Positions 13,816-53,481 of a stretch of 64,000 nt of DNA are shown piece by piece. Where the stretch lies: positions 5,871 to 69,870 of the IMG/VR virus record IMGVR_UViG_3300033571_007861, one strand, 5' to 3'. This DNA is from a virus. Positions within the stretch are counted from its first letter, which is position 1. Each line of letters opens with the position of its first letter. The position numbers and the translations under genes were made by a program. Below the pieces are notes generated by a model that did no database searches, was not told where the DNA came from, and worked only from the letters and a program-made list of their open reading frames with translations.

Positions 13816-16800
13816 ATGGACGACGACATCATAAACTCCATTCGCCTTGCCCGCTCCCGTTTACAATCAGGTGGCGTCCCTGATGACGCTTCCCAAGAGG
13901 CTTTCCTACAAGAACAACTCCAAGGTTCCGCCCCTCAATACGATCCCGAAGCCGGTCTTCAAACGGCTAAGGAAGCTGGCCGCGCCATTGCAGGCATGAC
14001 TACCCCCGGCGCTATTGCAGATGCCGCTGGTTATCTTGGTGGTCCTTCGGCATATGAGAACCTTCGTAATCAACATTACCTTGACGCCGCCCTTCAACTG
14101 GCGTCGGTGATTCCGGGTGCAGGGGTTGCTGCAAAAGGGGCTGCGTTAGCGAAAGCAGCACCATTATTGGCTGTTGTCCCAACATCCATAGCAAAAACTA
14201 TTGGTAAAAAATCACTTCCTGAAACCTCTAAATTTTTACGTGCTGTTGAGACAACACCCGGCGCAAGAATTGAAGAAGGTTCTTTGGTTATGCCTGTTGT
14301 TCGTGGTCAAGAACCAGAACAGGCAATGTCTCCTTCGGTTAGGGGCGGTGTTTTTTATTTACCTCAAGGCGACAAAAACGCCCGTTATTATGGCGGCTCT
14401 TGGAATTATGGCGGTTCCCAAAAAATCCAAGGCGAGACGGCTTTTAATAACCCGTTGTTTGTAAAGGGAGCAACTGGCGGTAAAGCACCAGAAACCGCAT
14501 ATACAATGCTTCACGGAAAAAATGCTCTGAATAATTTACAAAAAGACATTCGTTCTGTTGTCAACGAACAATTTTGGATGACAAAAAAAGACCCATCCCT
14601 GTATCAAGAGAGAGTTGAAAGTCTTCTTAAGGACTATGGGGCCGATCCATCAATTGCTGATCATTTAATCCAAAACAGTAAAAAAGGAAACCAACTTTTT
14701 TATGCTTTGCAAGAATATATTATCGGAAATTCTGCAAGAAAGGCTGGATATGATTCTATTTTAGGTTATGGCGTAAAAAGAGATGCTGCAAAAAGCCCGT
14801 TTTTTTCAGAAGTTTTTGATTTAAGGGAAAGTCACTATCCGTCGCCTTCTGGTGAATACAAACTTTACCCTGAGTTTGTCCCTCAAGAACCTTCTTTAAC
14901 GACATCTTACGAATGGGTCTCCCCAACCATGGGCGCTGGCCGTCGATACACGACAAAAAAACAAGCCGTAAAGAGTATGCCTAAAGGCGCAAAACTTGTT
15001 AAAACAATGTTTGAAGACCCAATAAAAAATATCCCACTTGAAAACAGATCAACCGGCGGCACAGCGAGCGGAACCATGAACGATGATGTTAAGAATGCAC
15101 TTCGCCTTGCGAATAGCCGTTTGGGTCGTGCTGATGGCGGCAAAGTTTCTTTTGTTAAATTTAATAAAGAGTCTGGAACTCTTGGTATTCCGCGTGATGA
15201 AATGCCTCAGATAAAGTCTGAAAATAAAGGGGCATTGGTTAACTTTTTAAATGCTAAAGGTGTTAAACATAAAAAAATTGAAATTGATCCTGATAATCTT
15301 AAACCCACTCAACAAGAGTTTTCTCCTGAAAAGATTAAAATTGTCAGAGAAAACGCATCAAAAGACCGAACAATTTTGGTTTCGAAAGATGGTCACGTTA
15401 TTGATGGACATCATCAATGGCTCGCCGCAAAAGAGGACGGCAAAAAAGTAAAAGCCCTTGTTTTCAATAAAAACGCAAGAGAAATTCTTGACGAAATAAG
15501 AGAATTTCCAAGTTCTACTACAGATAATGCTTCAAGAATTAAACGCGCAATCGGCGGCGAAATTCCTACCCCTCCTCGTCGTCCGGATGATTTGGAATAT
15601 TATGGTGTCATGGGTGAGGCGCAAAAGAGGTTTCCGTTTATTAATAAATACGATCCTCATATCAAGGTAGACCCGCGAGAAGGCGACGGGATGTATTCGG
15701 AGTTTTACAATGCAACGGAAACGGGCGATCCTAACAACCCTTCTGACAAGCGACCTGAAGAATTCCCGCGTGGTTCGTCGGGTGTGCGCGTTTACAGACC
15801 TGAAGAATTCACGGCTGCTGATTATGCTGCGGAGTATTTACATGGCGATCCGGTCGCAAACAAAACGCGAGAAGAATTAATTAAGCAGTTAACTCCTGAG
15901 CAGTTGGATCATCTCAGGAACACTGGTGATTATAAGGAATCTGTTAAATTAAATCTCCCTGAAGAGCGCGCGTTGAATAACGCCGTTGATGCTATGATGC
16001 GTGGTTATACAATGCAAGATCAGCCAAGCCATCAATGGAGCAAGGAAGATTTGAAAGAGCTTGAGTTTACACCAGAAGAACTTGAGCTTTTAAACAGTCT
16101 GCAGGACTACGTTGAATCCCCGACTGAAGCTGCTCAGGGTAGAGACTTGGGCGGCAAGATAAACACGATCATTGACCGTGATCCTGATTGGCGTATGGGG
16201 CTTGATGGTGGTGGTCTTGTTGACGCACACACAGGATTACCTCCTGAAGAAAATTGGACAGAACTTGTTTCCAGAGAAAAACGCGGCAAGCGGCTTGAGC
16301 AGGCTGTCCCGTTGCGGGAAATGGCTGCACACGAACTCTATTTACAAGAAAATCCCACGGCGCTGCGTTCTGTAAAAGAACACGTTTATCATTTTATGAA
16401 CCGACCTTCTCGTAGTTTTGGAAAACCTTACGGGCAAACTCAGGGCGATTTTTTTGGGGTATGGCCTAATCGCGCCCCGCCAATAAAAGAATTTAACACT
16501 GGCGGCGAAGTCAGTGACGCTCTTGATCTGGCTCGCAACCGTCTTGCCTACGGCGGTCTGCCTGAAGACTACATGAAGGACGACCGTTACAAGGCGTTCC
16601 AGCAAATGGGCGGCACCAAGGTCGATCCAAGGTCGGAGGCCATTGGTCGGTTCCTGCCAAAGATGACGTATCATGAAAGCCGTGACAATCCATTGGCTGG
16701 CGCTAAAACGTCGAGTGCCGCTGGTTTGGGTCAGTTCACCAAGAAAACATGGAAAAATATAACAGCGGGAGAGCCGGAGGTTGCCGGTAAGTCTCGTGAC

Positions 16801-18084
16801 GAACTTTACGCCATGCGCCGTGATCCTTCTGAAGAAGGCCAGCGTTTTCACATGCGTATGGCTGAAAAGCTTGCCAATCAAAACGCGGATATGTTGGAAA
16901 AGGCTGGATTGCCTATAACGCCTGAAAATTTATATGCCGCACATTTTGGCGGACCCCACGGCGTCCGGGCTGCAGCCGCCCCGGCTAGAACTCCTTTGCG
17001 GAATATTTTTAACAAAGGAGAAATCAACGCTAATTCGTTCTTACGAGGGCAAAACGCAGCAGGCTTCCGCCGTTTCGCTCAAAGCGCCATAAACGAAACC
17101 CCTCGCGGATTGCCGATGGACTTGGAATTTAAACGCTCCCAGCTCCCCTCCAACCGCTACGAAGGTCTGCAGACGGCTATGGCTGGCGCTCAGCAACAGC
17201 CTTGGCAGGTGGCCGCTGCTCCCCAGCCAACACCGCCCACCCAAATGGCCTACGCCAAACCCGAGCAGCGCGGTTTCTCAGCGGACCTCATGACCCCGCG
17301 CCCGATCCCTCAACCAACGCAAATGGCTAGACTGCCCGATATGAATGTCGGTGGTCAGAGGATGATGGCTCAGGGTCCAATGGAAGGTCCGGGTCCGAAG
17401 GTGTTTGCTGATCGTGGGATGGGGGATAGTGGTCCGGGGATGGTGGCTGCTGATCGTGGGCCGGGGGTTGATTCTGGTATGGCTGGTCCGCAACCAGAGC
17501 CGCAGATTGATCAAGCGTCCTATCAGCCTGAGCCTGAGAGGCCCAATCAGGACATGCTTGAAGGTCTTGAGCAGCCGTTTGTTGGGTGGCCGGATTTTGC
17601 AAGTCTGTTTGCCGATGGTGGTGTTGTTGGTGATGCCTTGAGGTTAGCCACGGGTGGGAAAACTCCGACTTGGCAGAGAAAAGAAGGCCAAAATCCAGAA
17701 GGCGGTCTATCGGCAAAAGGCCGAGCATCATATAATCGTGCAAATCCCGGAAAGCCCGGATTGAAGCCACCTGCGCCTCATCCAAAAACCGAAAAGGATG
17801 CAGGTCGCCGTAAATCATTTTGCTCGCGCATGAAAGGTATGAAGGCTAAACTTACAAGCGCCGAAACAGCGCGCGATCCTGATAGCCGTATCAACAAATC
17901 CCTCCGCGCATGGAACTGCGCCGATGGTGGACAAGTGTGGGATAAGCCGCGCCCGAAGCGTCTTGGTGAGCCTGAGCCATTAAGCGCAAAACAGAAGAGA
18001 AGCGCCAAGGCTGCGGCGAAAGCTGCTGGAAGGCCGTATCCAAATTGGGTGGATAATGCTAATGCCGCCAAAAGGAATAAATAA
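13816..18084 (+). CDS. large modular (polyvalent-like) protein: pre-toxin-like leader, possible ART-like domain, ParB-like domain, lytic-transglycosylase-like domain, DUF6321-like module
   Basis: LKPTQ..IDGHHQWLAA (ParB-like); HESRDNP..SSAAGLGQF (SLT-like); WQRKEGQNPEGGL..RRKSFCSRM; modules separated by xxGG motifs. Confidence 0.75.
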   Translation: MDDDIINSIRLARSRLQSGGVPDDASQEAFLQEQLQGSAPQYDPEAGLQTAKEAGRAIAGMTTPGAIADAAGYLGGPSAYENLRNQHYLDAALQLASVIPGAGVAAKGAALAKAAPLLAVVPTSIAKTIGKKSLPETSKFLRAVETTPGARIEEGSLVMPVVRGQEPEQAMSPSVRGGVFYLPQGDKNARYYGGSWNYGGSQKIQGETAFNNPLFVKGATGGKAPETAYTMLHGKNALNNLQKDIRSVVNEQFWMTKKDPSLYQERVESLLKDYGADPSIADHLIQNSKKGNQLFYALQEYIIGNSARKAGYDSILGYGVKRDAAKSPFFSEVFDLRESHYPSPSGEYKLYPEFVPQEPSLTTSYEWVSPTMGAGRRYTTKKQAVKSMPKGAKLVKTMFEDPIKNIPLENRSTGGTASGTMNDDVKNALRLANSRLGRADGGKVSFVKFNKESGTLGIPRDEMPQIKSENKGALVNFLNAKGVKHKKIEIDPDNLKPTQQEFSPEKIKIVRENASKDRTILVSKDGHVIDGHHQWLAAKEDGKKVKALVFNKNAREILDEIREFPSSTTDNASRIKRAIGGEIPTPPRRPDDLEYYGVMGEAQKRFPFINKYDPHIKVDPREGDGMYSEFYNATETGDPNNPSDKRPEEFPRGSSGVRVYRPEEFTAADYAAEYLHGDPVANKTREELIKQLTPEQLDHLRNTGDYKESVKLNLPEERALNNAVDAMMRGYTMQDQPSHQWSKEDLKELEFTPEELELLNSLQDYVESPTEAAQGRDLGGKINTIIDRDPDWRMGLDGGGLVDAHTGLPPEENWTELVSREKRGKRLEQAVPLREMAAHELYLQENPTALRSVKEHVYHFMNRPSRSFGKPYGQTQGDFFGVWPNRAPPIKEFNTGGEVSDALDLARNRLAYGGLPEDYMKDDRYKAFQQMGGTKVDPRSEAIGRFLPKMTYHESRDNPLAGAKTSSAAGLGQFTKKTWKNITAGEPEVAGKSRDELYAMRRDPSEEGQRFHMRMAEKLANQNADMLEKAGLPITPENLYAAHFGGPHGVRAAAAPARTPLRNIFNKGEINANSFLRGQNAAGFRRFAQSAINETPRGLPMDLEFKRSQLPSNRYEGLQTAMAGAQQQPWQVAAAPQPTPPTQMAYAKPEQRGFSADLMTPRPIPQPTQMARLPDMNVGGQRMMAQGPMEGPGPKVFADRGMGDSGPGMVAADRGPGVDSGMAGPQPEPQIDQASYQPEPERPNQDMLEGLEQPFVGWPDFASLFADGGVVGDALRLATGGKTPTWQRKEGQNPEGGLSAKGRASYNRANPGKPGLKPPAPHPKTEKDAGRRKSFCSRMKGMKAKLTSAETARDPDSRINKSLRAWNCADGGQVWDKPRPKRLGEPEPLSAKQKRSAKAAAKAAGRPYPNWVDNANAAKRNK

Positions 18085-18765
18085 ATGCTTCCTGACAATA
18101 TAAACAAAAACTGTGGAATATACAGGATATATAACAAATCCAATGGTAAGTTTTACATTGGATCAAGCAAAAACATTAAACAAAGAAAACAAAAGCATTT
18201 TTATCAATTAAATAAAAATAATCATAAAAATGATTATTTGCAAAATGCTTGGAATTCACAGCAAAATAAAGAAGATTTTGATTTTCAAGTTTTTATATAT
18301 TGTAAAGAGCACGAGTTGATTTTATTAGAACAAAAATGCATAGATATTATGAATCCACATTATAACGAATCAAGAATAGCTGGAAGGCCGGACTTAAATG
18401 AAAATACAAGAAAAAAAATATCAAAGTCCGTAAAAAATTATTTAATTAGCTTAGGTGATAATCACCCAAGCAAAAGACCAGAAGTAAGAGAAAAAATGAG
18501 TCTTTCCTCCAAGGGGAGGCCAAAAACAAAAGAAAGTATTGAAAAACAAAAACATACCAAAGCTTCGCCCAATTTTAAGTGCCCTAATAAAAGCATTGAA
18601 AAAAGAACCAAACATAGTGAGTTATTAAAATCAAAAGGAGAGTTTCATGCCAGCAAGAGAGACGATGTTAGAAAAAAGATGAAAGATTATTGGCGCACAG
18701 GTGCATCTTTATATACACTTTGGTATAGATCAAATGTAATGCATCAATATTATTGGGGCGCTTGA
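18085..18765 (+). CDS. free-standing GIY-YIG homing endonuclease ending in YWGA
   Basis: CGIYRIYN..FYIGSS..R..H..LEQ..YN; AT-rich. Confidence 0.88.
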   Translation: MLPDNINKNCGIYRIYNKSNGKFYIGSSKNIKQRKQKHFYQLNKNNHKNDYLQNAWNSQQNKEDFDFQVFIYCKEHELILLEQKCIDIMNPHYNESRIAGRPDLNENTRKKISKSVKNYLISLGDNHPSKRPEVREKMSLSSKGRPKTKESIEKQKHTKASPNFKCPNKSIEKRTKHSELLKSKGEFHASKRDDVRKKMKDYWRTGASLYTLWYRSNVMHQYYWGA

Positions 18766-18767
18766 TT

Positions 18768-21701
18768 ATGCACACCGCCATAAAAAACGCTTTGCTGCTT
18801 GCAAAAAATCGTCGCAAATATCAAACGGGCGGATCAACACCGTATGGCGTTGTTGATTTGGGCGATAAAATAATCCTTGGCTCTCCTCATGGTGATAAAA
18901 TCGAACTGCCAGAGGACATTCAATCTCGCGTTAGGGATGTGGCTCAAAAGCACGGCGCATATTACGAGGGCACTGGGGGAGACATTGAGTCAAACAAAGA
19001 GTTGCTGCCCGAATATCGAGGGTCTTGGGACGAGCAATATGCAAGAAACATAAGTGGATACCCCACGGAATATCTTGCTCCGATGTTTAGCAACGTCGAA
19101 GTAAACAGACCTCATGAGATTTTTGAAGACCCTAAGAAAACCATAATGGCAAGTATTTTGGCCAATCAAGCCAAGGCCAGATATATTAAAGACAGGGATT
19201 TTAACGAAAAGGTTTTGCGGGATTTTTTGCTTGAGGGCAGCGAACCGGACACTAATTTTCTTAAATTATCTCAGGAACCCGCCACAAAAGAAAACCTTCT
19301 TAAGTTTTTTACAACGGGTGAAAAACTTATGTGGCCGGATAACTGGCAAGAATATCCTCATAACCTTGGAAAGATTGCAAAACGATTTGAAGATGCAAGA
19401 AATTCTTATTTGTTGAACGCGCCTCCCGGCGTTTACGTCGCTGGAGCCGGTCATATCCCAGAGCTTAAACGTCTTAAAAAAGATTTGAACGTCATTGGCG
19501 GCGAAAGGTCTGGTTATGGCATTGGCGGCACCCCAACCGACGACCAACAAGACTTCACCGGCAGCGTTGAACTAGGACGCCCCGACGAGGTTTCTCAGGA
19601 AGCGTTTTTACAAGAACAACTCCAAGGCTCTGCGCCTCAGTATGATCCTGAAGCTGGAATGCTGACGGCTAAGCGCGCAGGGTTGATGGCGGCAGGATTT
19701 GCGCCGGGGAGTGGTATTGCCACGGCTGCTGGTCAATTTCCGACTGCTGAGGGCGGTAAAGAGCCGTCAATGGCTGAGGATTGGCGCAAGGGTGAATATC
19801 TTTCTGCTGGCCTTAAAGGTTTGGGCGCTGCTGGCGATATTGCCTATGGCGTTCCCTTGGTCGGCCCTGCTGTTGGCGCTGCGATGAAAGCGCCGTTGGT
19901 TGCTAAACTTGCCATGGCTGCTGCGCCGATGGCGAAGATTGCTGGCGAAGTAGCGCCTGCTGTTGAAACTGTTTCACGTGTAACAAACCCCATCGGCATG
20001 TATTCGGCTGCTGCCGAAGCCGCTCGTGCTTTGCCCCAAGAAAAAGGCACCCTGCAGCAAATGCTGGCGACGATGAAGGGTGTGACGCCGGAAGAGCTAC
20101 ATTGGTCGGGGGTGAGTGAGGCGTTTGCGGGAAAACCCACTGTCACGCGCGAGGAACTGGCAAAGCATTTTGAGGAACGGTTGCCGGGGGTAAGTGAGAC
20201 GGTGTTGGTTGATGAGCCAATTAAAGGAAGCGGATGGGAGTCTGTTGAGGGCGGAACAAAGTTTGGAGAACACACACTCCCCGGCGGTGAAAACTATCGG
20301 GAGGTTGTGTTACATTTGCCAGAGATTTCTCCAGAAGCACAAAAACTTGAAGCGCGTAGAAGAGAAATAGAAGCACTTGGTCGTGAGGCGACAGAAGAAC
20401 AAAAAACCGAGTGGGCAAATATTATGAATCGCCTTCAACCCGAACAAAGGGACATTGAAGGATTAGATCAATTTAAAGGTTTTCCAACTTTTCAATCTCA
20501 ACACTGGAACCAACCCAACGTCCTTTCTCATCTCCGCATGTCCGACCGCACAGGCCCGGATGGCGAGAAAGTATTGCATCTTGAAGAATTGCAGAGTGAT
20601 TGGGGGCAGAAGGGGAGGAAGGAAGGGTTTAGGGATCAAGAATCTTTTGACAAAGCAAACAGAAGAGTAAAGGAAATTCAAGAAAAAGAAAAGGAATTGA
20701 ATAATAAATTAAATGATATTAACAAAAATATGATGATTGACGAAGATGCTTTTGAAACTATGCTTAGTTCAAATCCAGACCCCGTTCTTGTTAAAAAGTT
20801 TTACCAACAAAATCAAAACATATTAGATGCGTCAAAACCAATAGATAAAGAATTGGAAAACTTGCAAAATGAACGACTTTCACTTGTAAGTGATATGGAA
20901 AACTTTGCTAGGGGCGTTCCTTCCGCCCCCTACGTCGCCTCCCCCGAAGGCAAGCATACATTGTCGTGGGTTGATCTTGGCCTCAAGCGCGCATTGAAAG
21001 AAGCGGCTGAGGGTGGGTATGACAAACTTATTTGGACCCCCGGCCCTGAACAAGCGGCGCGGTATGATTTGTCGAAGCAAATTCAACGTATTGAGTATGA
21101 TCCAAAATTTCAAATGTTAAACGCTTACAAACCCAATGGCTTCAATGCCATTGAAAAATCAAATGTTAAACCAGAACAACTTTCGGAATATATTGGAAAA
21201 GAGGCTGCAGAAAAATTGTTGCAGTCTCAGCCAGATAGTTGGGGGATTTATAAACTTGCTGATGAAGACTTAAAAGTCGGCGGCGAGGGAATGAAGTCTT
21301 TTTACGACAAGATCGTTCCCAATCAACTGCAAAAGATTGTCAAGAAATTAGATAAAGACGCCAAGGTTCAAATTGGCGGTCATGCGATTGAGACGGATGA
21401 TGGCGCAATCAACGCCCACGTCATCCAAATCACACCTAAAATGCGCGAAGCCATCTTAAAAGGCTTTGCTGCATATGCTGATGGCGGCGCTGTTAAGCCA
21501 AAACAACGCAATTCCGCGCATCTTGGTCCGATTATTGAGCGCGGAATGAAGATTACGCAGAAATTGAGCGCCAAAAAGGGCCAAAAACCCTCAACCACCA
21601 TCCCAAAACCCGTAAAATACGTCCCTCAAGCGAAAGAAAACGCCGAGTTTCGCAAATTAATGGCTGAGGTGGACGAGTTGCTTGAGAAATTCAAAGATTG
21701 A
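18768..21701 (+). CDS. large modular (polyvalent-like) protein
   Basis: shares the SQEAFLQEQLQGSAPQYDPEAG leader with 13816; GGENYRE..HW..LEELQSDW..GYD..GM..FYD domain; xxGG-delimited. Confidence 0.75.
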   Translation: MHTAIKNALLLAKNRRKYQTGGSTPYGVVDLGDKIILGSPHGDKIELPEDIQSRVRDVAQKHGAYYEGTGGDIESNKELLPEYRGSWDEQYARNISGYPTEYLAPMFSNVEVNRPHEIFEDPKKTIMASILANQAKARYIKDRDFNEKVLRDFLLEGSEPDTNFLKLSQEPATKENLLKFFTTGEKLMWPDNWQEYPHNLGKIAKRFEDARNSYLLNAPPGVYVAGAGHIPELKRLKKDLNVIGGERSGYGIGGTPTDDQQDFTGSVELGRPDEVSQEAFLQEQLQGSAPQYDPEAGMLTAKRAGLMAAGFAPGSGIATAAGQFPTAEGGKEPSMAEDWRKGEYLSAGLKGLGAAGDIAYGVPLVGPAVGAAMKAPLVAKLAMAAAPMAKIAGEVAPAVETVSRVTNPIGMYSAAAEAARALPQEKGTLQQMLATMKGVTPEELHWSGVSEAFAGKPTVTREELAKHFEERLPGVSETVLVDEPIKGSGWESVEGGTKFGEHTLPGGENYREVVLHLPEISPEAQKLEARRREIEALGREATEEQKTEWANIMNRLQPEQRDIEGLDQFKGFPTFQSQHWNQPNVLSHLRMSDRTGPDGEKVLHLEELQSDWGQKGRKEGFRDQESFDKANRRVKEIQEKEKELNNKLNDINKNMMIDEDAFETMLSSNPDPVLVKKFYQQNQNILDASKPIDKELENLQNERLSLVSDMENFARGVPSAPYVASPEGKHTLSWVDLGLKRALKEAAEGGYDKLIWTPGPEQAARYDLSKQIQRIEYDPKFQMLNAYKPNGFNAIEKSNVKPEQLSEYIGKEAAEKLLQSQPDSWGIYKLADEDLKVGGEGMKSFYDKIVPNQLQKIVKKLDKDAKVQIGGHAIETDDGAINAHVIQITPKMREAILKGFAAYADGGAVKPKQRNSAHLGPIIERGMKITQKLSAKKGQKPSTTIPKPVKYVPQAKENAEFRKLMAEVDELLEKFKD

Positions 21702-21811: not shown

Positions 21812-22966
21812 ATGGCGCACGAATATAAGGATTCTGCGAAGAAATCGCATGATAAGAAGCTAGCCAGCTATGGCGGCAAGAGCAAGGACACGGATCATTG
21901 GGCTGGTTTGAAGGACATTAACACGTCCAAGCAGGCTGGCATGAAGGTGATTGACAAGGAGCCGGAGCTTTCTGAGGAAACCGCTCCGCGTATCATGCGC
22001 AAGGCCGGTGGCGCTGTGAAGGGCGCGATGTCGCTGAAGCGTTTGGACAAGGCTCCGCGTGGAAAGAAGCCGGTTATGGGCGGAACGCGCACTGAGGCTA
22101 TCCCGTCGCCGCAGAAACAGGAAGAAAAGTTTGACGCCACGACGCGCCCGACGACGGATCACATGAAGGATGTGTCGCGGCGCAAGGCTGGTGGGGCTCT
22201 GCGTCATAAGAAGGAAGAGGGTGGCAAGTTGCCGAGCGCAGAAGAGGCGCTTCGTTCCGCTGAGCGTTTGAAAGAAATCAAGGTTGATCGGAAGGAGCCG
22301 GAATATCCGAAGAGCCTTCCGGCGGCTTCTGAAGCTGCGCGCACGTCTGGTCGCACTCAGCCCTACAAGAAGGGCGGCAAAATCCCGCACATGGAGTGGG
22401 AACATTCCAAGGATGATCTTGAGCAGGATAAGAAACTTGCCAAGAAGCATGGCATGTCCATGGAGAAGTGGGAAAAGTCTGCTCTGGACAAGAAACATGA
22501 CGAGCAGCAGTCCACGGAAGGGCTGAAGAAGGGTGGTCGCGCCAAGCGCGCTGCTGGTGGTGGCCTTGGCATGTCGGAAGATGACGACGCGCCGAAGTCG
22601 CATGGCAAAAAGGGCGCTGGAAAGACCACAGTGAACATTATCATTGGTGGTGGCGCTCCCGGTGGTCAGCCGCCCGCCCCGCCTCCGATGATGGGTCCGG
22701 GCGCTTTGCCGCCTATGGCTCCCCCGCCCGCTCCGCCTGCTGGTCCTCCGATGCCGCCTCCGGGTGGTATGCCTCCGGGTGCTGGCGGCCCTCCGCCTCA
22801 GCTTCCGCCGGGGATGATGATGCGCGCTCGCGGTGGCCGCACATTTACCGATGTCAAAGTCAGCAAACCCAAAGTCCGCGATGGTTATCCGGTTATGACA
22901 GCCGGATCGGGAACTGGAAAAGGACGGCGTGAGAAGATTCTTGCGTATGGCGATGAAGGCGAATAA
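21812..22966 (+). CDS. basic low-complexity protein with many K/R-x-GG motifs and a Pro-rich segment
   Basis: RKAGG twice, EEGG, KKGG twice, AAGG, RARGG. Confidence 0.75.
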   Translation: MAHEYKDSAKKSHDKKLASYGGKSKDTDHWAGLKDINTSKQAGMKVIDKEPELSEETAPRIMRKAGGAVKGAMSLKRLDKAPRGKKPVMGGTRTEAIPSPQKQEEKFDATTRPTTDHMKDVSRRKAGGALRHKKEEGGKLPSAEEALRSAERLKEIKVDRKEPEYPKSLPAASEAARTSGRTQPYKKGGKIPHMEWEHSKDDLEQDKKLAKKHGMSMEKWEKSALDKKHDEQQSTEGLKKGGRAKRAAGGGLGMSEDDDAPKSHGKKGAGKTTVNIIIGGGAPGGQPPAPPPMMGPGALPPMAPPPAPPAGPPMPPPGGMPPGAGGPPPQLPPGMMMRARGGRTFTDVKVSKPKVRDGYPVMTAGSGTGKGRREKILAYGDEGE

Positions 22967-23068: not shown

Positions 23069-23929
23069 ATGGCTAACTCAGGTATATATAAAATTGTGGA
23101 TATTTCAACAGGTGATTTTTATATTGGATCAACTAAAAATTTTAAATTAAGAAAGAAGAAGCATTTTAACGATTTAAAAAATCAAAAACATCACAACAAC
23201 AAGATTCAAGCCATATACAACAAAGAAAGAGTCTTGAGTTTTGAAATATATATAATTTGTTCTGTTGAATTTTTACAAATGTATGAACAAAGATGTATAG
23301 ATATATTGAAACCAAAATTAAACATTTCTATTGACACTATTGCTTTTATGAGGGGTAAAAAGCATTCTCCCGAAACAAGAAAAAAGATGAAAGAAAACGC
23401 AAAAAGAGGTGAGAACAGCCCATCAAAACGCCCGGAAGTTAGAAAAAAGATGAGTGAAAGCAGTTGGATGAAGACACCGGAGGGTTCTTTATCTGTAAGC
23501 GGAGAAAACCACGCAGGCGTAAAACTTACTAAAGAACAAGCAATAGAAATTTTATATTCTCTGGAACCGACAAGTGTTTTAGCTCGTCGCTATAATATTG
23601 CACAGTCTGTAATTTCAAGAATTAGAAGCGGGGAAAGATGGAAGTGCATTCGTCCAAAAGATTTTGTTCCAAAGGGCATTCCTGAAAAAATATGGTATAG
23701 GTCCGGGCCTGACAATAAATTTTATGGCAAAAAACACTCTGTTGAATCTAGATTAAAAATCAGTGGAGAAAACGCCCATAAATCTAAGTTAAAATTAGAA
23801 GATGTATTAATTATCAGAGAATCAAAAGAACCTCCCAAAATTTTGGCTAAAAAATTTAATGTTTGTGAGGCTTCCATAAGAAACATACAAAAAAGAAAAT
23901 CTTGGAGATTTATAGATGGGCTCTCTTGA
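23069..23929 (+). CDS. free-standing GIY-YIG homing endonuclease with NUMOD3/HTH repeats
   Basis: SGIYKI..FYIGST; GKKHSPETRKKM and FYGKKHSVES. Confidence 0.9.
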   Translation: MANSGIYKIVDISTGDFYIGSTKNFKLRKKKHFNDLKNQKHHNNKIQAIYNKERVLSFEIYIICSVEFLQMYEQRCIDILKPKLNISIDTIAFMRGKKHSPETRKKMKENAKRGENSPSKRPEVRKKMSESSWMKTPEGSLSVSGENHAGVKLTKEQAIEILYSLEPTSVLARRYNIAQSVISRIRSGERWKCIRPKDFVPKGIPEKIWYRSGPDNKFYGKKHSVESRLKISGENAHKSKLKLEDVLIIRESKEPPKILAKKFNVCEASIRNIQKRKSWRFIDGLS

Positions 23930-24131
23930 CCTTGAATTATATCAAGTCTTAGAAAAAGAATTCGGTGATTTACTTGAACAGCTTGCCGCTGAGATTGTAA
24001 GTGGCCGTGCTTCCGACTATGCCGACTATCGGTTTAGATGCGGAAAAATAAACGCTATCAAAGACGCTCTTTTGATAGCTAAAAAAGCAAACCGAAAAGT
24101 TCTCGGTTTGAAAGATGACGAAGAAAGGTGA
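23916..24131 (+). CDS. hypothetical head-module protein upstream of the GroES-like gene
   Basis: SGRASDYADYRFRCG motif; synteny. Confidence 0.7.
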   Translation: MGSLDLELYQVLEKEFGDLLEQLAAEIVSGRASDYADYRFRCGKINAIKDALLIAKKANRKVLGLKDDEER

Positions 24132-24135
24132 AGCC

Positions 24136-28352: not shown

Positions 28353-28381
28353 TTGACTTCTTTGGATACAAATCTTATATA
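28353..28381 (+). promoter_or_regulatory. sigma70-like promoter of the endonuclease gene
   Basis: TTGACT-N17-TATATA. Confidence 0.55.
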
Positions 28382-28412
28382 CAATTTGTACCCCCAAAAC
28401 AAAGAGGTCAAA

Positions 28413-46539: not shown

Positions 46540-49500
46540 ATGGGTTCAAAAGGCAGCGGCGGTGGATCGTCAAATTTTAGTTTTCAAAATACGTCAAGCA
46601 CTTATGCGCCCGCCCCGTCTGCTATGGCCGCTTATAATCAAGCCCTTGGCATGGCCGAAAACGTAGCGGCAATACCTTTCCAGCCTTATGGTGGACAGAT
46701 GGTTGCCGGCGCAACTCCTGATCAAATGCAGGCGTGGGAAGCAACGCGACAAATGCAGGGCGGCGTTCAGCCTTATATCAACGCGGCTACAAATCTTCAG
46801 GGACAAGCTGTAAATCTTGCTGATCCACGAAACTTTAATCAGCAGACATTACAGCAATACATGAATCCGTATCAGCAGGATGTTGTCAATGCAACAATGG
46901 CCAATCTAGGCCAGTTGCAAGAACAACAGCAAAATAAATTGTCATCGCAAGCAATCAAGCAGGGTGCTTTTGGCGGTGATAGAACTGGTATTGCTCGCGC
47001 GGCTCTTGCTGGTCAGCAGAATCTTGCCAATGCTCAGACTTTGGCACAGTTGCAACAGCAAGGCTATACCCAAGCAATGGGTCAATATAACCAGCAGCAG
47101 CAGATGGCTATTCAGACCGCTCAGAACGCTGCTTATGGTCTTGGCCAACTTGGCGGTCAAGCTCAAAATGCCGCTCTTACAGGTATTAATGCACTTCTTG
47201 GAACGGGCGCGCAACAACAAGGTCTTGCACAGCAGCAGCTTTCAAACGCCTACAATCAATGGCAACAGCAGCGCGCCTATCCTTACCAGCAGGCCGCGTT
47301 CTATTCTGGTATTGCTGGCGGCATTGCGCCGAACATGGGTGGAACGACCAGCACTACAGGGTTCGGAACAGGACAAACCCAAATCCAACAACCAACGGGC
47401 GGTGGCGGTGGCGCTGGGGCGCTTACATCACTTTTATCGTTCTTGCCTGCAATGTTTGGCGCTTCCGACGAAGACGACAAGACAGACATCAAATATCTTG
47501 GGCGCGATCCTGAAACCGGCGAGAAGATGTATTCTTATCGCTATAAGGGCGACCCTAAATCCTATCCCAAGGTTGTTGGACCTATGGCTCAGGATATTGA
47601 AGAGGATGAGCCTGAGCGCGTTACGGAGATTGGCGGTCACAAGGTTGTTGCTGGTCTTGGTCGTTTGAAGCCGAGTGAACGCGAAGAGTTTCAAGGCGGC
47701 GGTTCTGCGGGATCGTCTGCCGGTCTTGGCGCTCTTATGGGCGATTCTTCTTCCTCTCCGACGGCATCTTCATCTTATGCCGCACCGGCAGGCAACCTTG
47801 CTCAACAGTCACAGATTGATCCGGGCATGGGTCAGTTTTTGCAGGGTGTTTACGACCCAAGAACCGCCTATCAGGTTGCGCGATCAAAGTGGGTGAATCA
47901 ACCGCAGTCTTTTGATCAGCCACAATTTCAATCTGACTCGTTTCAATTTCCCAAACAGTTGATGCAGGATGGGAGTGACAGCTTCCCGTTTTTTGCGTCC
48001 GACAGCGAACCGAGACGGGAAGGCGGAAGAGTTGAAAAGGCGGAAGGCGGCGGTTTTGGATCGTTCTTTGACTTGCTGAAACATGGCGGCGCTATGGGTC
48101 CGTATGCAACGGCCCCTGACAATTACATGGGCGCAGCTCAACAGATTGGCTTGGGAAAGATCATTCCGCAGGCACAAGACAAGGCGAAAAGCATCACCGA
48201 GTCAGCGGCTGAAGGTATGCAACGTCATCTTGCCAGCGACAAGGGCGGTGGTGGAGGTGGCGGCGAGGGCGGTGCGCCCAAAATGCCTGAGTTCAAACCG
48301 CGTCGCCCGCAAAAGGCGGCTGCGCCAGCGGCGGAAGGCACAGGGCGTGAAGGCGGTCTTGGCGAGTTAGAAGCATCACCGGGCGCAGAGCCGCGTTCTG
48401 AGCCGCCAGTAACGGCGACCGATCCCGTTATGCCTGCGGCTCCTGAGGGCGTTGGTCCGGGTGCTTTGGAAGGTGCCGGCGCTGGAGCGCCTTTTGATTT
48501 TGCCGCCGTTGCTCCGCCAATACATGAAACGCATTTGTTGGACCCCGGATTTGGGTTTGGCATGGCCGAAGGCGGCAGGATTGAAAAGGCTGGCGGTGGC
48601 GCGAGCGGCGTTCCTGTTGGCGGCGGCAGGGCGGTGATTGGTTCTGGCGGCGGTCTTGGGGATATTGTTCTTGGGTCGTCTCCGTCATGGAGCGATCTTG
48701 CCGGTTTTGGCGAATTGTCGGCACAGAACGCCGCCATGTCTCCTGATGCTTTGACAAAAAACATTTGGTCCAAAGACCCCGGCGAACAGTTGACGCCTGA
48801 GCAGCAGGGGATGCCTGCTATGCCGGGCGAAGAATATTACAAGACGCCTCAAGAGCGATTGCCCGGAAAACTTCAAAGCCAGACGCAGGGCTCTCAAAAC
48901 CCCGGCCTTGATCCATTCATGGCGATGATGATGGGTGGCAAATCGGGCATGAACCTTGGTCTGGCGACCATGATTGGCAATCAGGTTCAGCAACAGCAGG
49001 CGAGCGAACAACAGAAAGCGCTGCAGGCCAAGCGTGAGAAGATGCTTGAACAGCCGCGTCCGGTTGAGGGGTATTTTTCCAAGATTGGAAATCAGAACAT
49101 TAACCCGCGCACGGGCCTGTATAATTTGGATTATACGGGCGCTTATTACGGAATGCCGTATAAGGATGGTGGTCGGGTAGACAAAGCAGATGGCGGTTCT
49201 TCTTATACAGGCAAAAAATATGGGTTGAATGATCTGTATGACATCATGAGAAAAGCTGGCGCTACTCCTAAAGAAGCCGCTCAAATGGCGGCTGTTGGAA
49301 TGGGGGAAAGTAGCGGTTGGTCTGCGGCGCGCAATTTGAATCGCAGGACTGGCGATAATTCTCATGGAATATGGCAGATCAACATGCTTGGCGGTTTAGG
49401 CCCTGAGCGCGCTAAAAAATATGGGTTGAAATCCATAAACGATCTGTATGACCCTGTAACCAATGCAAGAATTGCACTTGATCTTTTGAGGAACACAAAA

Positions 49501-50526
49501 GGCGGACTTCACAATTGGGGCGCTTACAACAAAAAGACCGCTCCTTATCGTCATGCTATGGCTCAAATATCGCAGTCGTTTCCTCAATTAGCGTCACGCC
49601 CGGTAGAGTTTTCTGACGTATCTTCTCCGCGCGCCGTCGCCTATCAGCCCGAGGCTCGCCCTCTCGCATATAAACCCGCCGAAGGAACGCCGATTGTTGC
49701 GTCTGACGCTAAAGGGTTTGCGCCGATTGCAGAACAACCGAAAGGCAGCGTCTTATCGCGCATAAATCCTGCCGATCCGTCTGGACCTTTGTTGGGGCAG
49801 GCTGCACCCGATTATGCAAAGATAAGCCCGCGCACAAATGTTGCGAGAATCCCTTCTCCTTCAAGCGGCTTTGGTCTCGTTGGTTCGGCGCAGGCGGCTG
49901 ATAGAGGCGTCTATCCAGAAAGACCGCTTGGGGAAGGCGAGGCGATTCGTCCAAGAGATATTCCGATCATTGGAAATAGAGGCGAGGGTCGCTATCACAC
50001 CATGAACCGTGATGCGTTTAACCCGCAGCTTCAACTTGCGCCCCATGTTCGTGAATCTGAGGAATTGACGCCCGCTTTTGGACAACCGACACGCCAGTCG
50101 TTGGGCGGTCCTCATATGAGTATGTATGGTGTTGGTCACATGGATGAGCCGACATACGCCGATTTCCCGATGCAGACGGGACCGTTAGGGACAGGTTTTG
50201 AAGAGCCACAAGAACAGATCGTTGCTCAGGACCAGCCTGCAACTCACACCGAAGCAGCGCCAAGACAGATGTATTGGGGAGATTATCGTGATGTTGAGAA
50301 CAATCCTTTAGGCGACTTCATTGATGAGTTGGCCGGGGATGTTCGTCGATCAGCACGCGCGGGAACAGCAGCTACTCCGATGGGCAAGTTTCAAGGACAG
50401 GGCGGATTGGGCGAATTGTTCAATCTGGAGGGATACTTGCCGGGTGGCGGTCAGGCGTCTCAAAGAGATAGACAAACCGCAGACGCAGGCTTTGATTTAG
50501 GTAGCCTTTTTGACGTTTTCGGTTAA
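46540..50526 (+). CDS. ejection/internal virion protein with an internal S74-like chaperone domain and a lysozyme-like domain
   Basis: Gln-rich YMNPY..GAFGG region; SDEDDKTDI..YSYRYK..GPMAQDIE; GESSG..DNSHGIWQINM. Confidence 0.75.
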   Translation: MGSKGSGGGSSNFSFQNTSSTYAPAPSAMAAYNQALGMAENVAAIPFQPYGGQMVAGATPDQMQAWEATRQMQGGVQPYINAATNLQGQAVNLADPRNFNQQTLQQYMNPYQQDVVNATMANLGQLQEQQQNKLSSQAIKQGAFGGDRTGIARAALAGQQNLANAQTLAQLQQQGYTQAMGQYNQQQQMAIQTAQNAAYGLGQLGGQAQNAALTGINALLGTGAQQQGLAQQQLSNAYNQWQQQRAYPYQQAAFYSGIAGGIAPNMGGTTSTTGFGTGQTQIQQPTGGGGGAGALTSLLSFLPAMFGASDEDDKTDIKYLGRDPETGEKMYSYRYKGDPKSYPKVVGPMAQDIEEDEPERVTEIGGHKVVAGLGRLKPSEREEFQGGGSAGSSAGLGALMGDSSSSPTASSSYAAPAGNLAQQSQIDPGMGQFLQGVYDPRTAYQVARSKWVNQPQSFDQPQFQSDSFQFPKQLMQDGSDSFPFFASDSEPRREGGRVEKAEGGGFGSFFDLLKHGGAMGPYATAPDNYMGAAQQIGLGKIIPQAQDKAKSITESAAEGMQRHLASDKGGGGGGGEGGAPKMPEFKPRRPQKAAAPAAEGTGREGGLGELEASPGAEPRSEPPVTATDPVMPAAPEGVGPGALEGAGAGAPFDFAAVAPPIHETHLLDPGFGFGMAEGGRIEKAGGGASGVPVGGGRAVIGSGGGLGDIVLGSSPSWSDLAGFGELSAQNAAMSPDALTKNIWSKDPGEQLTPEQQGMPAMPGEEYYKTPQERLPGKLQSQTQGSQNPGLDPFMAMMMGGKSGMNLGLATMIGNQVQQQQASEQQKALQAKREKMLEQPRPVEGYFSKIGNQNINPRTGLYNLDYTGAYYGMPYKDGGRVDKADGGSSYTGKKYGLNDLYDIMRKAGATPKEAAQMAAVGMGESSGWSAARNLNRRTGDNSHGIWQINMLGGLGPERAKKYGLKSINDLYDPVTNARIALDLLRNTKGGLHNWGAYNKKTAPYRHAMAQISQSFPQLASRPVEFSDVSSPRAVAYQPEARPLAYKPAEGTPIVASDAKGFAPIAEQPKGSVLSRINPADPSGPLLGQAAPDYAKISPRTNVARIPSPSSGFGLVGSAQAADRGVYPERPLGEGEAIRPRDIPIIGNRGEGRYHTMNRDAFNPQLQLAPHVRESEELTPAFGQPTRQSLGGPHMSMYGVGHMDEPTYADFPMQTGPLGTGFEEPQEQIVAQDQPATHTEAAPRQMYWGDYRDVENNPLGDFIDELAGDVRRSARAGTAATPMGKFQGQGGLGELFNLEGYLPGGGQASQRDRQTADAGFDLGSLFDVFG

Positions 50527-50547: not shown

Positions 50548-53481
50548 ATGACGATGGCTGAATCCGGTTTCTTTGATGCTCTTGCTGATGAGGCTTCGCA
50601 AGAAGATTTTCTTCGTAGAGAACTTGCCGGTTCTGCGCCACAGTATGATCCTGAAGGCGGACTGAATACGGCCAAGAACATCGGTCGTATGGCAGCTGAA
50701 ATGACGATTCCCGGAGCGGCGGCGTCTGCTGCTGGATACATGGGCGAGCCATCCATGTTTCAAAACATCGGCTCCGGCGACTACGGGACGGCGGCTTTGC
50801 AGGCTGCAGGTCTTATTCCGGGTATTGGCTGGATGGGTAAAGCCGGTCGCCTTGGCAAGAGCGCTCGTCGTGCGTCGGAAGTTATTCCGCCTTCCGCTGC
50901 TCGTGAAGTTGGCGCTACGCCGCGTGGGTGGGACATTGCAGGCCCAAGAGAAGCCGGCAGGACGATTGAAGGCAATGTTGCCGTTGAGCCATACTTGATT
51001 GGCGGGGAAGGTGCGCCAGCGCCAAGACGCGCAGTCAATTACACAAGCGAAGTCCCTCTTCCGAGATACACGGATTATGGACCTAAAATTTCAACGGAAT
51101 TGAACCCGCAAATTGCTGATTTGCTCCGTAGCATCAGAGCGGAAGGACGCGCTCCAAACCGCTTTGAAAGCAATATGTTGAGTTCGTATTTTCGTGGTCA
51201 ACAAGGTTCGGCTGCGGCTGAGGCAATGGCAAATATGCCTGTCTCGGTTATTCCTCGCGGTGTTCAAAGGGCGCTAAACAATATTCGAGCTGAAGGCAGA
51301 GAACCGACTAAGCTTGAACTTCTCAATATGAAAAAGCACTTTGCTGGACGCACCGGGCTCAAAAGCCGGGCTGCTCTGGATCGTGTTTCCATGGGGGAAG
51401 AACTTGCGGGGCCTTATCCAGAGTTTCGCGGCGCAATTAGAGAAGAAATGGCTGCGGCTCCAGAAGAACTTGCGGCAAGCGAAGGCACAAGGGAATCTTT
51501 GATTAATCGCGCCCTTAACATCGCTTCTCGCGTTGGCCCTAGAGTGGCCGAAGGAATGGCCGTTGGAGCGCCCGCTGGTATGGCGACGGGGCTTGCCTAT
51601 AACGCGATGATGGACCGTGGCGAAATGCCGGTTGTTCCGATTGCAAATCGCGAAGAGAGTCCTGTTATTGCTCCAATGCAATTGAGAGAATTTCCAATGT
51701 CAACAGCTATGGGCACAGATTTTGAGTCTGTCCCAAGCGTTGCTTCTGACATGCCTCAAGAAGCCGCATTGCCGCCGCGTCGTCCGATGGGTATTTCAAG
51801 GTCTGGAGAAGCGCCTGTTCGTCGCCCGTCTGCGCCGCGTCATGCAGCGCCAATTCATCGTTCGGCACCGAGACACGCCGGCCCATCGCGCATGGTTGAT
51901 TCTGGAAAGCGCTACTATGGCGATTGGCGAGACGCTGAGCCTTATGCGTCCGATCCGATTGGCGGGTTCATTGATGAACTGACGGGAAGAACAAGAACCG
52001 CTCGTCGTCCGGGGAGAGCCGCGCCTTCGTCCGCCGGGCTTGGCGATTTACTGCCGTTTGCCAGTGGGGGAACCGTCCGCCGCCCTTTCGCTAATGGGGG
52101 TGCGGAAGACCGTATCCCTGTTTTAAGCGACATTGGCGACGCTCTTGGTGGAATGATGCAGGGCGGCGAAGAACCCGTTGTGGCTAGTGATCGTAGCGCT
52201 GCTCCAGAAGGTAGAGAGAACATTTTTGAGCGCTGGTCAAACAACCCGCTCAGCCAATATCTGTTTGCCGCTGGCTTGGGGATGATGGCTTCTCCGCAGG
52301 CTAATCCGCTCATGGCGGTTGGCGAGGGCGGATTGCGTGGCCTTGAATATATGCAGGCGGTTCAGGCTAATTCTGATATGCGTCGCAGGGAAAAACAGGC
52401 AGCGGCGGAACGTCGTCAGCAGCTTGAATTTTTGAAAAATCTTGACCAACCTCAAGATGCTGTTGCATCTGATGTTGCGCCGTCAAAATCTTCTTTAGAA
52501 GAACCTGAAACTGTAATTCCGGAAACTCAAACTTCTCAGGATGTTAAACCAGAGACAATAAAAACCACTCAATCGGAACAGAAAACGGCAATAAATGCAC
52601 CACCTGTTGTCGCTCAAGACAACAGGTTAGAGCAGCTTTCAAATCTTAATCAAAAGATTTTGAGAAGTATGCCTTATGTTACCGATCCATCGGTAAGGTC
52701 TGGTCTTGTCGCCAGACAAAAATCTTTAGAAGCTGAAATGAACAGGATTCAGCGTCAAAGAGAAAAAGCCGTTGAAGACGCGCGCATTCAACGTGGCCTT
52801 CAGCTTCAAGAAAAAAGAATTAAAATTGAAGAAGAAGCAAAAGACCCGACCAAGGTTTTTGAGAGAACGGCAGAAGAAACAGCAGGAAAAACTCAAGATA
52901 AGAGAATACAAGACATTGATCAATCTGCCGTGGTTGCAGATCAAACACTTGATCAAATAAAAGAAGTCCAAAATGCTTATAAAGCTGGAGACATTCATAC
53001 GTCTCCTTATGTTCAGACGTTTCTAAAGGGTGTTCAAGGGCTCGGTCTTGAATTTGCCCCTAGCCTGACAAATGCAATAGTTTCTCCTTCTGCTATTAAG
53101 AATACAGAAATCTTAATGCAGTTGGGAGTGTCCGATCTTATGAAAAAGATTGGCGGCTCTCTTGGAACAGGTATTTCGGAAGGCGACCGCAGGCTTATTG
53201 AACAACAAGCTCTTGGAATTGATAAGTCCCCGGAGGCAAATATTAAGGCTCTGAAAAATCTTGAAAAGGTTATGAATAGGGCGATTGAAGTTAAAAACTT
53301 CAAAGACAAATACATTAAAAAATATGGTCGCCTTGATAAAGATTTTGAGGCATCGTTAAGCCAGCATTTTGAAGGAAGGTCTTTGGGGTTAGATAAAACA
53401 TCAAAAACCCAACGGCCAGAAGGTTTAAGCGATGAAGATATTAGAAAAGAAATAGAACGCAGGAGAGGCGCAGGTGGTTGA
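50548..53481 (+). CDS. internal virion protein
   Basis: third copy of the SQE.FL..L.GSAPQYDPE leader; AGLGMMAS; ISEGDR; position. Confidence 0.7.
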   Translation: MTMAESGFFDALADEASQEDFLRRELAGSAPQYDPEGGLNTAKNIGRMAAEMTIPGAAASAAGYMGEPSMFQNIGSGDYGTAALQAAGLIPGIGWMGKAGRLGKSARRASEVIPPSAAREVGATPRGWDIAGPREAGRTIEGNVAVEPYLIGGEGAPAPRRAVNYTSEVPLPRYTDYGPKISTELNPQIADLLRSIRAEGRAPNRFESNMLSSYFRGQQGSAAAEAMANMPVSVIPRGVQRALNNIRAEGREPTKLELLNMKKHFAGRTGLKSRAALDRVSMGEELAGPYPEFRGAIREEMAAAPEELAASEGTRESLINRALNIASRVGPRVAEGMAVGAPAGMATGLAYNAMMDRGEMPVVPIANREESPVIAPMQLREFPMSTAMGTDFESVPSVASDMPQEAALPPRRPMGISRSGEAPVRRPSAPRHAAPIHRSAPRHAGPSRMVDSGKRYYGDWRDAEPYASDPIGGFIDELTGRTRTARRPGRAAPSSAGLGDLLPFASGGTVRRPFANGGAEDRIPVLSDIGDALGGMMQGGEEPVVASDRSAAPEGRENIFERWSNNPLSQYLFAAGLGMMASPQANPLMAVGEGGLRGLEYMQAVQANSDMRRREKQAAAERRQQLEFLKNLDQPQDAVASDVAPSKSSLEEPETVIPETQTSQDVKPETIKTTQSEQKTAINAPPVVAQDNRLEQLSNLNQKILRSMPYVTDPSVRSGLVARQKSLEAEMNRIQRQREKAVEDARIQRGLQLQEKRIKIEEEAKDPTKVFERTAEETAGKTQDKRIQDIDQSAVVADQTLDQIKEVQNAYKAGDIHTSPYVQTFLKGVQGLGLEFAPSLTNAIVSPSAIKNTEILMQLGVSDLMKKIGGSLGTGISEGDRRLIEQQALGIDKSPEANIKALKNLEKVMNRAIEVKNFKDKYIKKYGRLDKDFEASLSQHFEGRSLGLDKTSKTQRPEGLSDEDIRKEIERRRGAGG

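Follow-up and report, generated by a model that had tools for sequence, protein, structure and literature searches.

We analyzed a window of 64,000 nucleotides of viral DNA (positions 5,871 to 69,870 of the IMG/VR virus record IMGVR_UViG_3300033571_007861, which is rated complete at 69,870 bp), focusing on the open reading frame (ORF) at 13816..18084 (+) and its 1422-residue product, hereafter P0001. The ORF is genuine, and P0001 is a chain of independently occurring modules with Gly-Gly motifs at their borders, as homologues, alignment breakpoints, and a permutation test indicate. Our results show that these borders carry a real, lineage-specific joint code within a known kind of protein. In its complete form, the joint is a cassette that reads [Y/F/C/R]-A-[D/E]-G-G, followed by x-V-x-[D/N]-A-L-R-L-A, a predicted amphipathic helix, and then by G-G. 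While polyvalent cargo proteins are an established kind, the way in which their modules are linked, swapped, and perhaps set free is not understood. If a joint code marks every module border, such giant proteins could be divided into their modules on the basis of sequence alone, and gene fusion or splitting without functional loss would be explained.

A preliminary description of this DNA had proposed xxGG as the border signal and listed 11 such motifs in P0001. All 11 exist, within 3–6 nucleotides of their listed positions, and they do lie at module borders, but xxGG proved too loose a definition, as 10 more Gly-Gly pairs fall inside modules. P0001 contains 21 pairs, compared with 12.3 ± 3.3 expected from 2000 shuffles (p about 0.009), and glycine makes up 9.4% of its residues. 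The pairs in YGG (residues 199–200) and ATGG (residues 221–222) belong to the core of module M2 and do not vary across an alignment of 61 sequences. Among 35 window ORFs, an excess of pairs was found in P0001, in the ORF at 21812 (15 versus 6.6, p 0.001), and in the ORF at 46540 (43 versus 26.9, poly-Gly runs included), with a weak excess at 30394 (4 versus 1.7). The ORFs at 18753/18768, 44529, 50548, and 53474 showed none; the motif had been called phage-wide, and what stands of that claim is that a few other large, probably internal proteins share it. Portal, capsid protein, and terminase were likewise without excess, and the counts of Gly-Gly and A[DE]GG over the window ORFs bear out the earlier statement that they lack the motif.

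These counts bear on the simplest alternative, namely that Gly-Gly is just common in a glycine-rich protein. About 12 pairs are expected anyway, ten lie inside modules, several of the ORFs named for the motif have no excess, and in the 4914-residue DarB-like protein encoded by Erwinia phage PEp14 the pairs are as many as expected (35 versus 35). This explanation holds for the loose xxGG only. For the cassette it is refuted by the coincidence of pairs with borders (P = 5e-5), by a 12-fold enrichment of A[DE]GG in the lineage that is not seen in controls, by the confinement of all nine window copies to three ORFs, and by the recurrence of the ALRLA helix at the protein level with different codons, which together leave it very improbable.

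In the 36 window ORFs counted, A[DE]GG occurs nine times versus 1.4 expected, with three copies each in the ORFs at 13816, 18753, and 46540; the remaining 33 have none. We counted 47 copies in 27 related cargo proteins (29,464 residues), compared with 4.0 ± 2.1 in shuffles, and the preceding residue was Tyr (13), Phe (7), Cys (6), or Arg (5) in 31 of them. The flanks of 399 isolated Gly-Gly sites in the same proteins are biased toward Y/F at −3 (2.5–2.7-fold), A at −2 (2.1-fold), D/E at −1 (about 2-fold), and V at +2 (4.6-fold). Because this lineage set and a 6-ORF cargo set were picked partly for carrying the motif, the enrichments in both are partly circular; the window-wide count of A[DE]GG is unbiased.

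The helix element, x-[VI]-x-[DNS]-[AS]-[LI]-[RD]-L-A...GG, is present four times in P0001, at residues 1–20, 425–442, 897–914, and 1269–1281. The first copy is the N-terminal leader cassette H1 (MDDDIINSIRLARSRLQSGG; 13816..13875 (+), residues 1–20, predicted helix 3–17). The others form part of the joints J1 (described below), J3 (16489..16557 (+), residues 892–914; FNTGG-EVSDALDLARNRLAY-GG), where the match to the relative P0003 begins at residue 896, and J4 (17605..17658 (+), residues 1264–1281; LF|ADGG-VVGDALRLAT-GG). Across all six frames of the window, the ALRLA-helix pattern is confined to the P0001 ORF, with a looser copy in the ORF at 18768. AlphaFold predicts isolated helices at residues 3–17 and 423–436, with low-confidence flanks.

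Shorter and variant cassettes were also found. The ORF at 46540 carries GG-RVEKAE-GGG, GG-RIEKA-GGG, and GG-RVDKAD-GG, and the uncultured phage MW202675 carries GG-RVGFAQ-GG and GG-RIGYKD-GG. Joint J2 of P0001 (16138..16215 (+), residues 775–800; GG-KINTIIDRDPDWRMGLD-GGG) represents a second cassette type, GG-[KRE][IV]NT.ID[RK]DP.[WF].M.L..GG, which is also present in P0003, P0006, and one ORF of the related locus L095.

We compared these results with 75 large polyvalent proteins of other phages that share M2. There, A[DE]GG was at chance (18 versus 17.0 ± 4.7), the observed-to-expected ratio of Gly-Gly was 1.10, and the helix cassette was absent from all 75, indicating that the cassette is lineage-specific and not general to polyvalent proteins. 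In portal-proximal regions, Caulobacter phage RW has one A[DE]GG in 5790 residues and Roseobacter phage CRP-902 none in 6524; HTVC027P has a few related motifs. We found no description of the joint motif in the literature searched, which covered motif strings and the main texts of papers on polyvalent proteins and HTVC023P-type phages. The words "linker" and "glycine" are absent from the main text of Iyer et al. 2017 (PMC5512222), and the terms protease and polyvalent from the available text of a paper on HTVC023P-type phages (PMC9599517).

Whether domain borders coincide with the motifs was a check set beforehand, and the borders did so. Six borders defined independently of Gly-Gly lie 0–7 residues from a pair (permutation P = 5e-5), the end of DUF6321 and the start of the terminal basic unit sharing one pair, so that these two are not independent. 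Module M4 (15559..16137 (+), residues 582–774) adds two more, since its stand-alone 187-residue homologue P0292 (42% identity over residues 597–766) maps to about residues 588–784 and pairs occur at 580 and 779, for a total of eight homology-defined borders on joints. The ends of BLAST alignments to 19 relatives also concentrate at the joints; matches to the ParB/DarB-like module span 437–449 to 565–586, and M1 (residues 20–132) begins directly past the pair at 19–20. An exception is M2, whose end lies near residues 358–365 as judged from 60 stand-alone homologues, with the next pair only at 414.

The last two units are M7 (DUF6321, PF19846; 17659..17919 (+), residues 1282–1368, E 6.6e-19) and M8, the basic VWDKPRP unit (phrog_34011; 17932..18081 (+), residues 1373–1422), which are separated by the minimal joint J5 (17920..17931 (+), residues 1369–1372; WNC|ADGG). 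Of 80 IMG/VR loci, 76 encode DUF6321 as a small gene of its own, and in 19 loci a gene of ~50 residues beside it (MKKP|VWD...) encodes the VWDKPRP unit alone, confirming the earlier statement that both occur as stand-alone small genes in other phages. The stand-alone DUF6321 begins M-A|KTPAWQRKEGQN and finishes ..WDC(N); in P0001 these residues follow LATGG and precede ADGG, and the residue ahead of the J5 ADGG is the natural C terminus of the stand-alone protein. The four exceptions comprise one gene with a 25-residue leader finishing in GG, two embedded or extended forms without GG, and one with an ambiguous start.

The origin of the cassette became apparent from genes that are split where P0001 is continuous. 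The homologue in the related locus L087 (81% identity over residues 1–433) stops inside J1 (15043..15141 (+), residues 410–442; RSTGG - TASGT - MNDDVKNALRLANSRL - GR|ADGG), with overlapping ATGAATGA. The next L087 gene begins MNDDIANALRLARRRMDVGG, the equivalent of the internal P0001 sequence M421-NDDVKNALRLANSRLGRADGG (M421-NDDVKNALRLANSRL..GG), and Met-421 of P0001 matches its start codon. No convincing ribosome-binding site was found upstream of Met-421 that would make it an internal translation start. An ALRLA-type leader finishing in GG opens at least eight cargo genes: P0001, the next cargo gene at 18768 (MHTAIKNALLLAKNRRKYQTGG), P0004, P0006, and ORFs in L085, L091, L093, and L095. In P0003 and one L095 ORF, the cassette stands at the C terminus. 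The junction between DUF6321 and the basic unit exists as a bare ADGG (P0001 and P0009), as ADGG with a short helix (P0006), and as ADGG with a long helix (P0004). Together, the L087 split, the leaders, and the junction variants indicate that the cassette is a fused pair of gene ends. Comparison of these genes at the sequence level thus shows that it consists of the short tail of the upstream module and the leader helix of the downstream gene, and that genes of this lineage fuse and split exactly there.

Codon usage adds to this picture. The G+C content at third codon positions (GC3) is 0.22 in the ParB module, 0.30 in M2, and 0.55 in the lytic transglycosylase module, which points to modules with different histories and a mosaic origin. 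The cassette copies differ in codons, at synonymous sites, and share no long DNA repeat, indicating conservation at the protein level. We rejected a DNA-level repeat acting as a recombination joint as the main cause, as a single 23-nucleotide pair (83%; 16204 and 17614) links joints.

We tentatively read P0001 as a polyvalent cargo or ejection protein in which at least eight modules, each folding on its own and evolving through exchange, are held together by uncut joints. Polyvalent proteins combine 2–15 unrelated domains in one polypeptide; P0001 has at least eight modules, five of them with independent homologues or family matches, and its residues 439–586 correspond to the hallmark effector, a DdrB/DarB-like ParB. 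In the uncut chain, the Gly-Gly pairs would act as helix stops and hinges. The cassette helices would serve as common handles by which a protein built like beads on a string is retained in the internal core and threaded through the tail, making cutting unnecessary. The cassette can shrink to a bare ADGG or to GG-RVxKAx-GG. The predicted helices with low-confidence flanks, the lack of a recognizable protease among the 40 window ORFs searched, and the precedent of solved podophage pre-ejectosomes with their long ejection proteins of several domains are consistent with such a hinge and handle or leader role, which we prefer with the same reserve.

Several points weigh against the uncut chain. A plain hinge needs no conserved sequence, though positions −3, −2, −1, and +2 around the pair are conserved. 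Cassettes are found, moreover, at the very ends of proteins (N and C termini), where a linker is unneeded, and no partner for the helix was identified. The virion location and ejection of P0001 are themselves read from gene position and domain content only. Finally, the motif matches the mapped cleavage site of T5 pb2.

By analogy with that site, the joints could instead be proteolytic sites that are cut before A[DE]GG (P1 Y/F/C/R, P1′ A) by a host protease or an unrecognized phage activity, a possibility that we take seriously without thinking it probable. The T5 tape measure protein pb2 is cleaved after R1127, according to the available text of Linares et al. (PMC10038345), and the sequence at the cut is FVPR|AEGGMMY; no other A[DE]GG exists in its 1219 residues. 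Since this cut lies directly before AEGG, the place where P0001 would most likely be cut shifts to just before A[DE]GG, in place of the xxG|G or xxGG| sites proposed earlier. Such cuts would yield P0001 pieces of 47.2, 92.2, 11.0, and 5.9 kDa, each downstream piece keeping an ADGG-helix-GG leader. Lambda gpH loses ~14 kDa from its glycine-rich C-terminal region, and the available text of a 2025 paper (PMC12617516) states that site and enzyme are unknown. The region that is cut contains FATGGFTG (from residue 733) and YATGGYVG (from residue 778), and a cut ahead of ATGG at A734 would give a computed piece of 12.5 kDa. The motif may therefore make the lambda question directly testable, the prediction being a 12.5-kDa gpHC that starts ATGGFTG.

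Cleavage would also account for other features of the joints. A cut at J5 would recreate the natural C terminus of DUF6321, fused and split forms look interchangeable, and the 12-fold enrichment of A[DE]GG comes with Y/F/C/R ahead of it in 31 of 47 copies. The chains of the relatives P0003, P0005, and P0008 include a zincin HExxH module, in line with the self-processing that Iyer et al. predicted. However, searches of 40 window ORFs detected no protease family, close pairs such as GG-RVEKAE-GGG would free useless octapeptides, only three of the 11 motifs on the original list have the A[DE]GG form, and the link to cleavage comes from a single mapped site, in a protein of another kind. Extending the analogy, [Y/F/C/R]|A-[D/E/T]-G-G might be a general processing code of ejected tailed-phage proteins, its reader possibly supplied by the host or self-acting, which we consider doubtful. 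Were it true, T5 pb2 and lambda gpH would both be substrates of this reader, which in the present lineage would free a whole set of counter-defense and wall-cutting modules from one polyprotein in a phage without a recognizable maturation protease.

We searched for the enzyme that cleavage would require. Pfam searches of 40 window ORFs and PHROGs searches of 11 detected no peptidase family, the first 5.9 kb of the genome lying outside the window, and a regular-expression search found no HExxH in P0001 or any real window ORF. The one exception was a subthreshold S74 (chaperone) hit at residues 309–361 of the ORF at 46540 (20.7 bits versus a cutoff of 22). The proposed analogy with T4 gp21 processing found no support, as these searches detected no prohead protease among the window ORFs, some of which stay unassigned, and the gene ahead of the capsid gene appears scaffold-like. 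This ORF, 24565-25605, was considered as a protease and rejected; its coiled-coil richness, its strong conservation, and its 188 homologues argue for a scaffold. A predicted complex between this scaffold-like protein and residues 1–135 of P0001 scored 0.31 against a mark of 0.32, without controls, and provides no evidence either way. Its 346-residue product, encoded between the GroES and capsid genes, has no Pfam or PHROG family and shows 56–96% identity over 120 clusters, which is unusually conserved for a scaffold.

The ORF at 44529-45095 had been named as a candidate reader or protease, and neither its model nor a fold search lends support to this role. AlphaFold predicts two beta-hairpin-plus-helix repeats (predicted local distance difference test score (pLDDT) 79.3), and Foldseek against the PDB gave a best E value of 1.8. 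The 188-residue protein, with 80 close IMG/VR homologues, consists of a strongly conserved N-terminal helix (..KQAIAIALxTAR..RAxGG), a variable linker, and the two repeats, one of which contains ..AGGEYVI.PE.V... These repeats resemble the unit past the A-x-G-G of lambda gpH and T5 pb2.

The helix cassette could alternatively be a capsid-targeting or docking signal, like the targeting sequence of T4 internal proteins or the N termini of the P1 Dar proteins, that loads modules into the procapsid, with internal copies left over from gene fusions. At least eight cargo genes have it as their N-terminal leader, and it occurs only in large portal-adjacent or ejection-type proteins, and P1 DarA is packaged and loses its N terminus during head assembly, according to the available text of PMC12810830. 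However, stand-alone DUF6321, M2, and M4 homologues have no leader, internal copies are kept as well as terminal ones, and there is no known binding partner, making this explanation unlikely.

Known systems resemble P0001 in part. Iyer et al. 2017 described polyvalent proteins and, in the text available, predicted chain processing by zincin peptidases (PMC5512222). Like the proteins in that account, P0001 combines many unrelated effector and enzyme domains, among them a DarB/DdrB-type ParB, a cell-wall hydrolase, and an ART-type lead, and it is encoded at a late-gene position beside virion genes, with solo versions of its domains occurring elsewhere. Unlike many of them, it has no zincin peptidase module, which is common in the family but not obligatory. 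The cassette, in turn, is absent from the other 75 proteins, where A[DE]GG is not enriched. T5 pb2 and lambda gpH share with P0001 that they are ejected virion proteins with [F/Y/R]-A-x-G-G (available text of PMC10038345 and PMC12617516); this motif occurs three times in P0001, and in the sources at hand cleavage next to it is known for T5 only. Both are siphophage tail rulers with one or two sites near the C terminus, followed by a G-E-x-V unit, whereas P0001 belongs to a podovirus-like phage and its motif recurs between unrelated modules.

In T4, internal proteins carry a capsid-targeting sequence that is removed by the dedicated prohead protease gp21 at L/I-x-E. The likeness lies in a short N-terminal helix on unrelated packaged proteins, here the ALRLA-type leader of at least eight cargo genes; the difference is that no dedicated prohead protease was found in the window ORFs. 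Double-glycine leaders are cut by C39 peptidases and have a fixed hydrophobic register relative to GG, and the adenovirus protease recognizes (M/L/I)XGG|X. Both bear some similarity to the joints, the former as a short helix followed by Gly-Gly and the latter in cutting basic core proteins at GG. Unlike in C39 systems, the helix-to-GG spacing here varies from 0 to 6 and the hydrophobic residue lies one position further from GG, and the Pfam scan of the window ORFs found no C39 or clan CE peptidase.

The P1 Dar proteins (DarA, DarB, DdrB, and Hdf) are packaged and injected for anti-restriction, and M3 of P0001 matches proteins annotated as DarB-like, but the P1 proteins are encoded by separate genes with their own prohead protease Pro, and no Gly-Gly joint is described in the available text (PMC12810830). 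In podophage pre-ejectosomes (T7 gp14-16 and cyanophage A4 gp26-29), whole multidomain chains are arranged on helical bundles. Like P0001, these proteins are long and include a lytic transglycosylase, and they reside in the capsid until ejection, as P0001 probably does; unlike in P0001, the available text describes no joint motif (PMC12002296). M2 gave a weak structural match to A4 chain 9k3a_B (Z 4.4, 119 aligned residues).

The identities proposed for the modules were supported in most cases. M3 (15142..15558 (+), residues 443–581), a ParB/DarB-like (PLxRFG-type) module that terminates in RAIGG, matches DarB-like antirestriction and PLxRFG-annotated proteins over residues 439–586 with 40–57% identity (E to 4e-35), as well as phrog_11358 and phrog_2859. 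M6 (16558..17265 (+), residues 915–1150) is soluble lytic transglycosylase (SLT)-like, with a match to phrog_4067 at residues 949–1147. DUF6321 was detected at residues 1292–1366 with 68.8 bits, compared with a gathering cutoff of 28.5, and the basic unit was confirmed as well. The ART-like assignment persists as a moderately supported lead, and the pre-toxin-like one was not confirmed. M5 (16216..16488 (+), residues 801–891) had no homologue in BLAST against the relatives or in an Atlas search of M4 and M5 together, the best Atlas score of 0.81 being a chance-level lead that we discarded. A Pro/Gln/Met/Gly-rich low-complexity spacer (17266..17604 (+), residues 1151–1263) follows M6 and contains three tandem copies of a 21-nucleotide unit at 17397-17467.

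M1 (13876..14220 (+), residues 21–135) is a helical, Ala/Gly-rich "SAPQYDPE" module present as three paralogous copies (51–54% identity) in three large proteins of the window, at 13876-14220, 19575-19949, and 50578-50919. A shared role in anchoring or membrane insertion is possible. In relatives, M1 is usually preceded by a leader cassette.

M2 (14221..14889 (+), residues ~125/136–358) is a widespread conserved domain, possibly a divergent version of the ART fold into which ~90 helical residues are inserted. Its family has 385 representatives at E ≤ 0.001 and 50% clustering in a library of 1.8 billion proteins, occurring solo or inside giants of up to 4916 residues, and the AlphaFold model has a pLDDT above 90. 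Its Atlas neighbors are ART-PolyVal clusters (0.91, 181 shared features, 19 of 30 matches), and it aligns with PARP/tankyrase catalytic domains with Z 3.3–4.1 over 100–112 residues, on both sides of the helical insert. No Pfam family, ART-PolyVal PF18760 included, matched M2 in P0001 or in 10 homologues; Foldseek against the PDB returned nothing at E ≤ 0.001 (best 4.6e-3, anti-CRISPR 6kyf), and the best hit of a wide structure comparison (Z 5.6) covered the helical insert only. In view of Atlas and PARP/tankyrase matches without a Pfam or Foldseek match, we treat ART-like M2 as a moderately supported lead from models and not as a finding. The invariant residues of M2 (14188-14889) include R163, R176, Y192, T220-G-G, N292, E300, D313, E332, D335, and R337.

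The P0001 gene starts 3 nucleotides past the end of the portal ORF (match to phrog_1216), with the terminase large subunit gene upstream and a Mu gpT-like capsid protein gene downstream. The nearest relatives of the portal are those of MW202675 (39% identity), Pelagibacter phages HTVC027P and HTVC023P, Roseobacter phages CRP-901 and CRP-902, and Caulobacter phages. The window also encodes two SU10-type adaptors and the 1328-residue SLT-bearing protein, which together suggest that the phage has a short tail and internal ejection proteins. Judging from these genes, the phage appears podovirus-like and related to the HTVC023P/027P pelagiphages. The location after the portal, together with the SU10-type adaptors and ejection-type proteins that point to a short tail, indicates that P0001 is not a tail tape measure protein. 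P0001 is probably carried in the phage particle, a location that, like its ejection, is deduced from gene position and domain content only.

A GIY-YIG-type homing endonuclease gene (18085..18765 (+)) lies at a joint, exactly between P0001 and the next cargo gene (18768..21701 (+)), which was listed as an ORF from 18753 and truly starts at 18768. Behind its leader, that cargo protein contains three A[DE]GG, including AAY|ADGG-AV, as well as an M1 paralogue in its interior. The 1328-residue ejection-type protein (46540..50526 (+); SLT_3, E 7.8e-10) combines mini-cassettes with three A[DE]GG and contains a run of seven glycines. The 977-residue protein that follows (50548..53481 (+)) has an N-terminal M1 paralogue, the motifs FASGG-TV and FANGG, and a C terminus that is itself GG.

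The window has three free-standing homing-type endonuclease genes, at 18085-18765, 23069-23929, and 28353-29117 (two GIY-YIG-like and one HNH plus endonuclease VII). An HNH-like match at residues 424–455 of the 856-residue terminase large subunit suggests an insertion. A phage GroES (Cpn10, E 2.6e-8) is encoded at 24115-24552, a position kept in MW202675, HTVC027P, Caulobacter phage RW, and CRP-902. The ORFs at 21812-22966 and 30394-30714 encode basic Gly-Gly-rich proteins with motifs such as RKAGG-A and YKKGG-KI, and HTVC027P has a row of small basic genes past the portal, with YKVGGRV and YKKGGSV.

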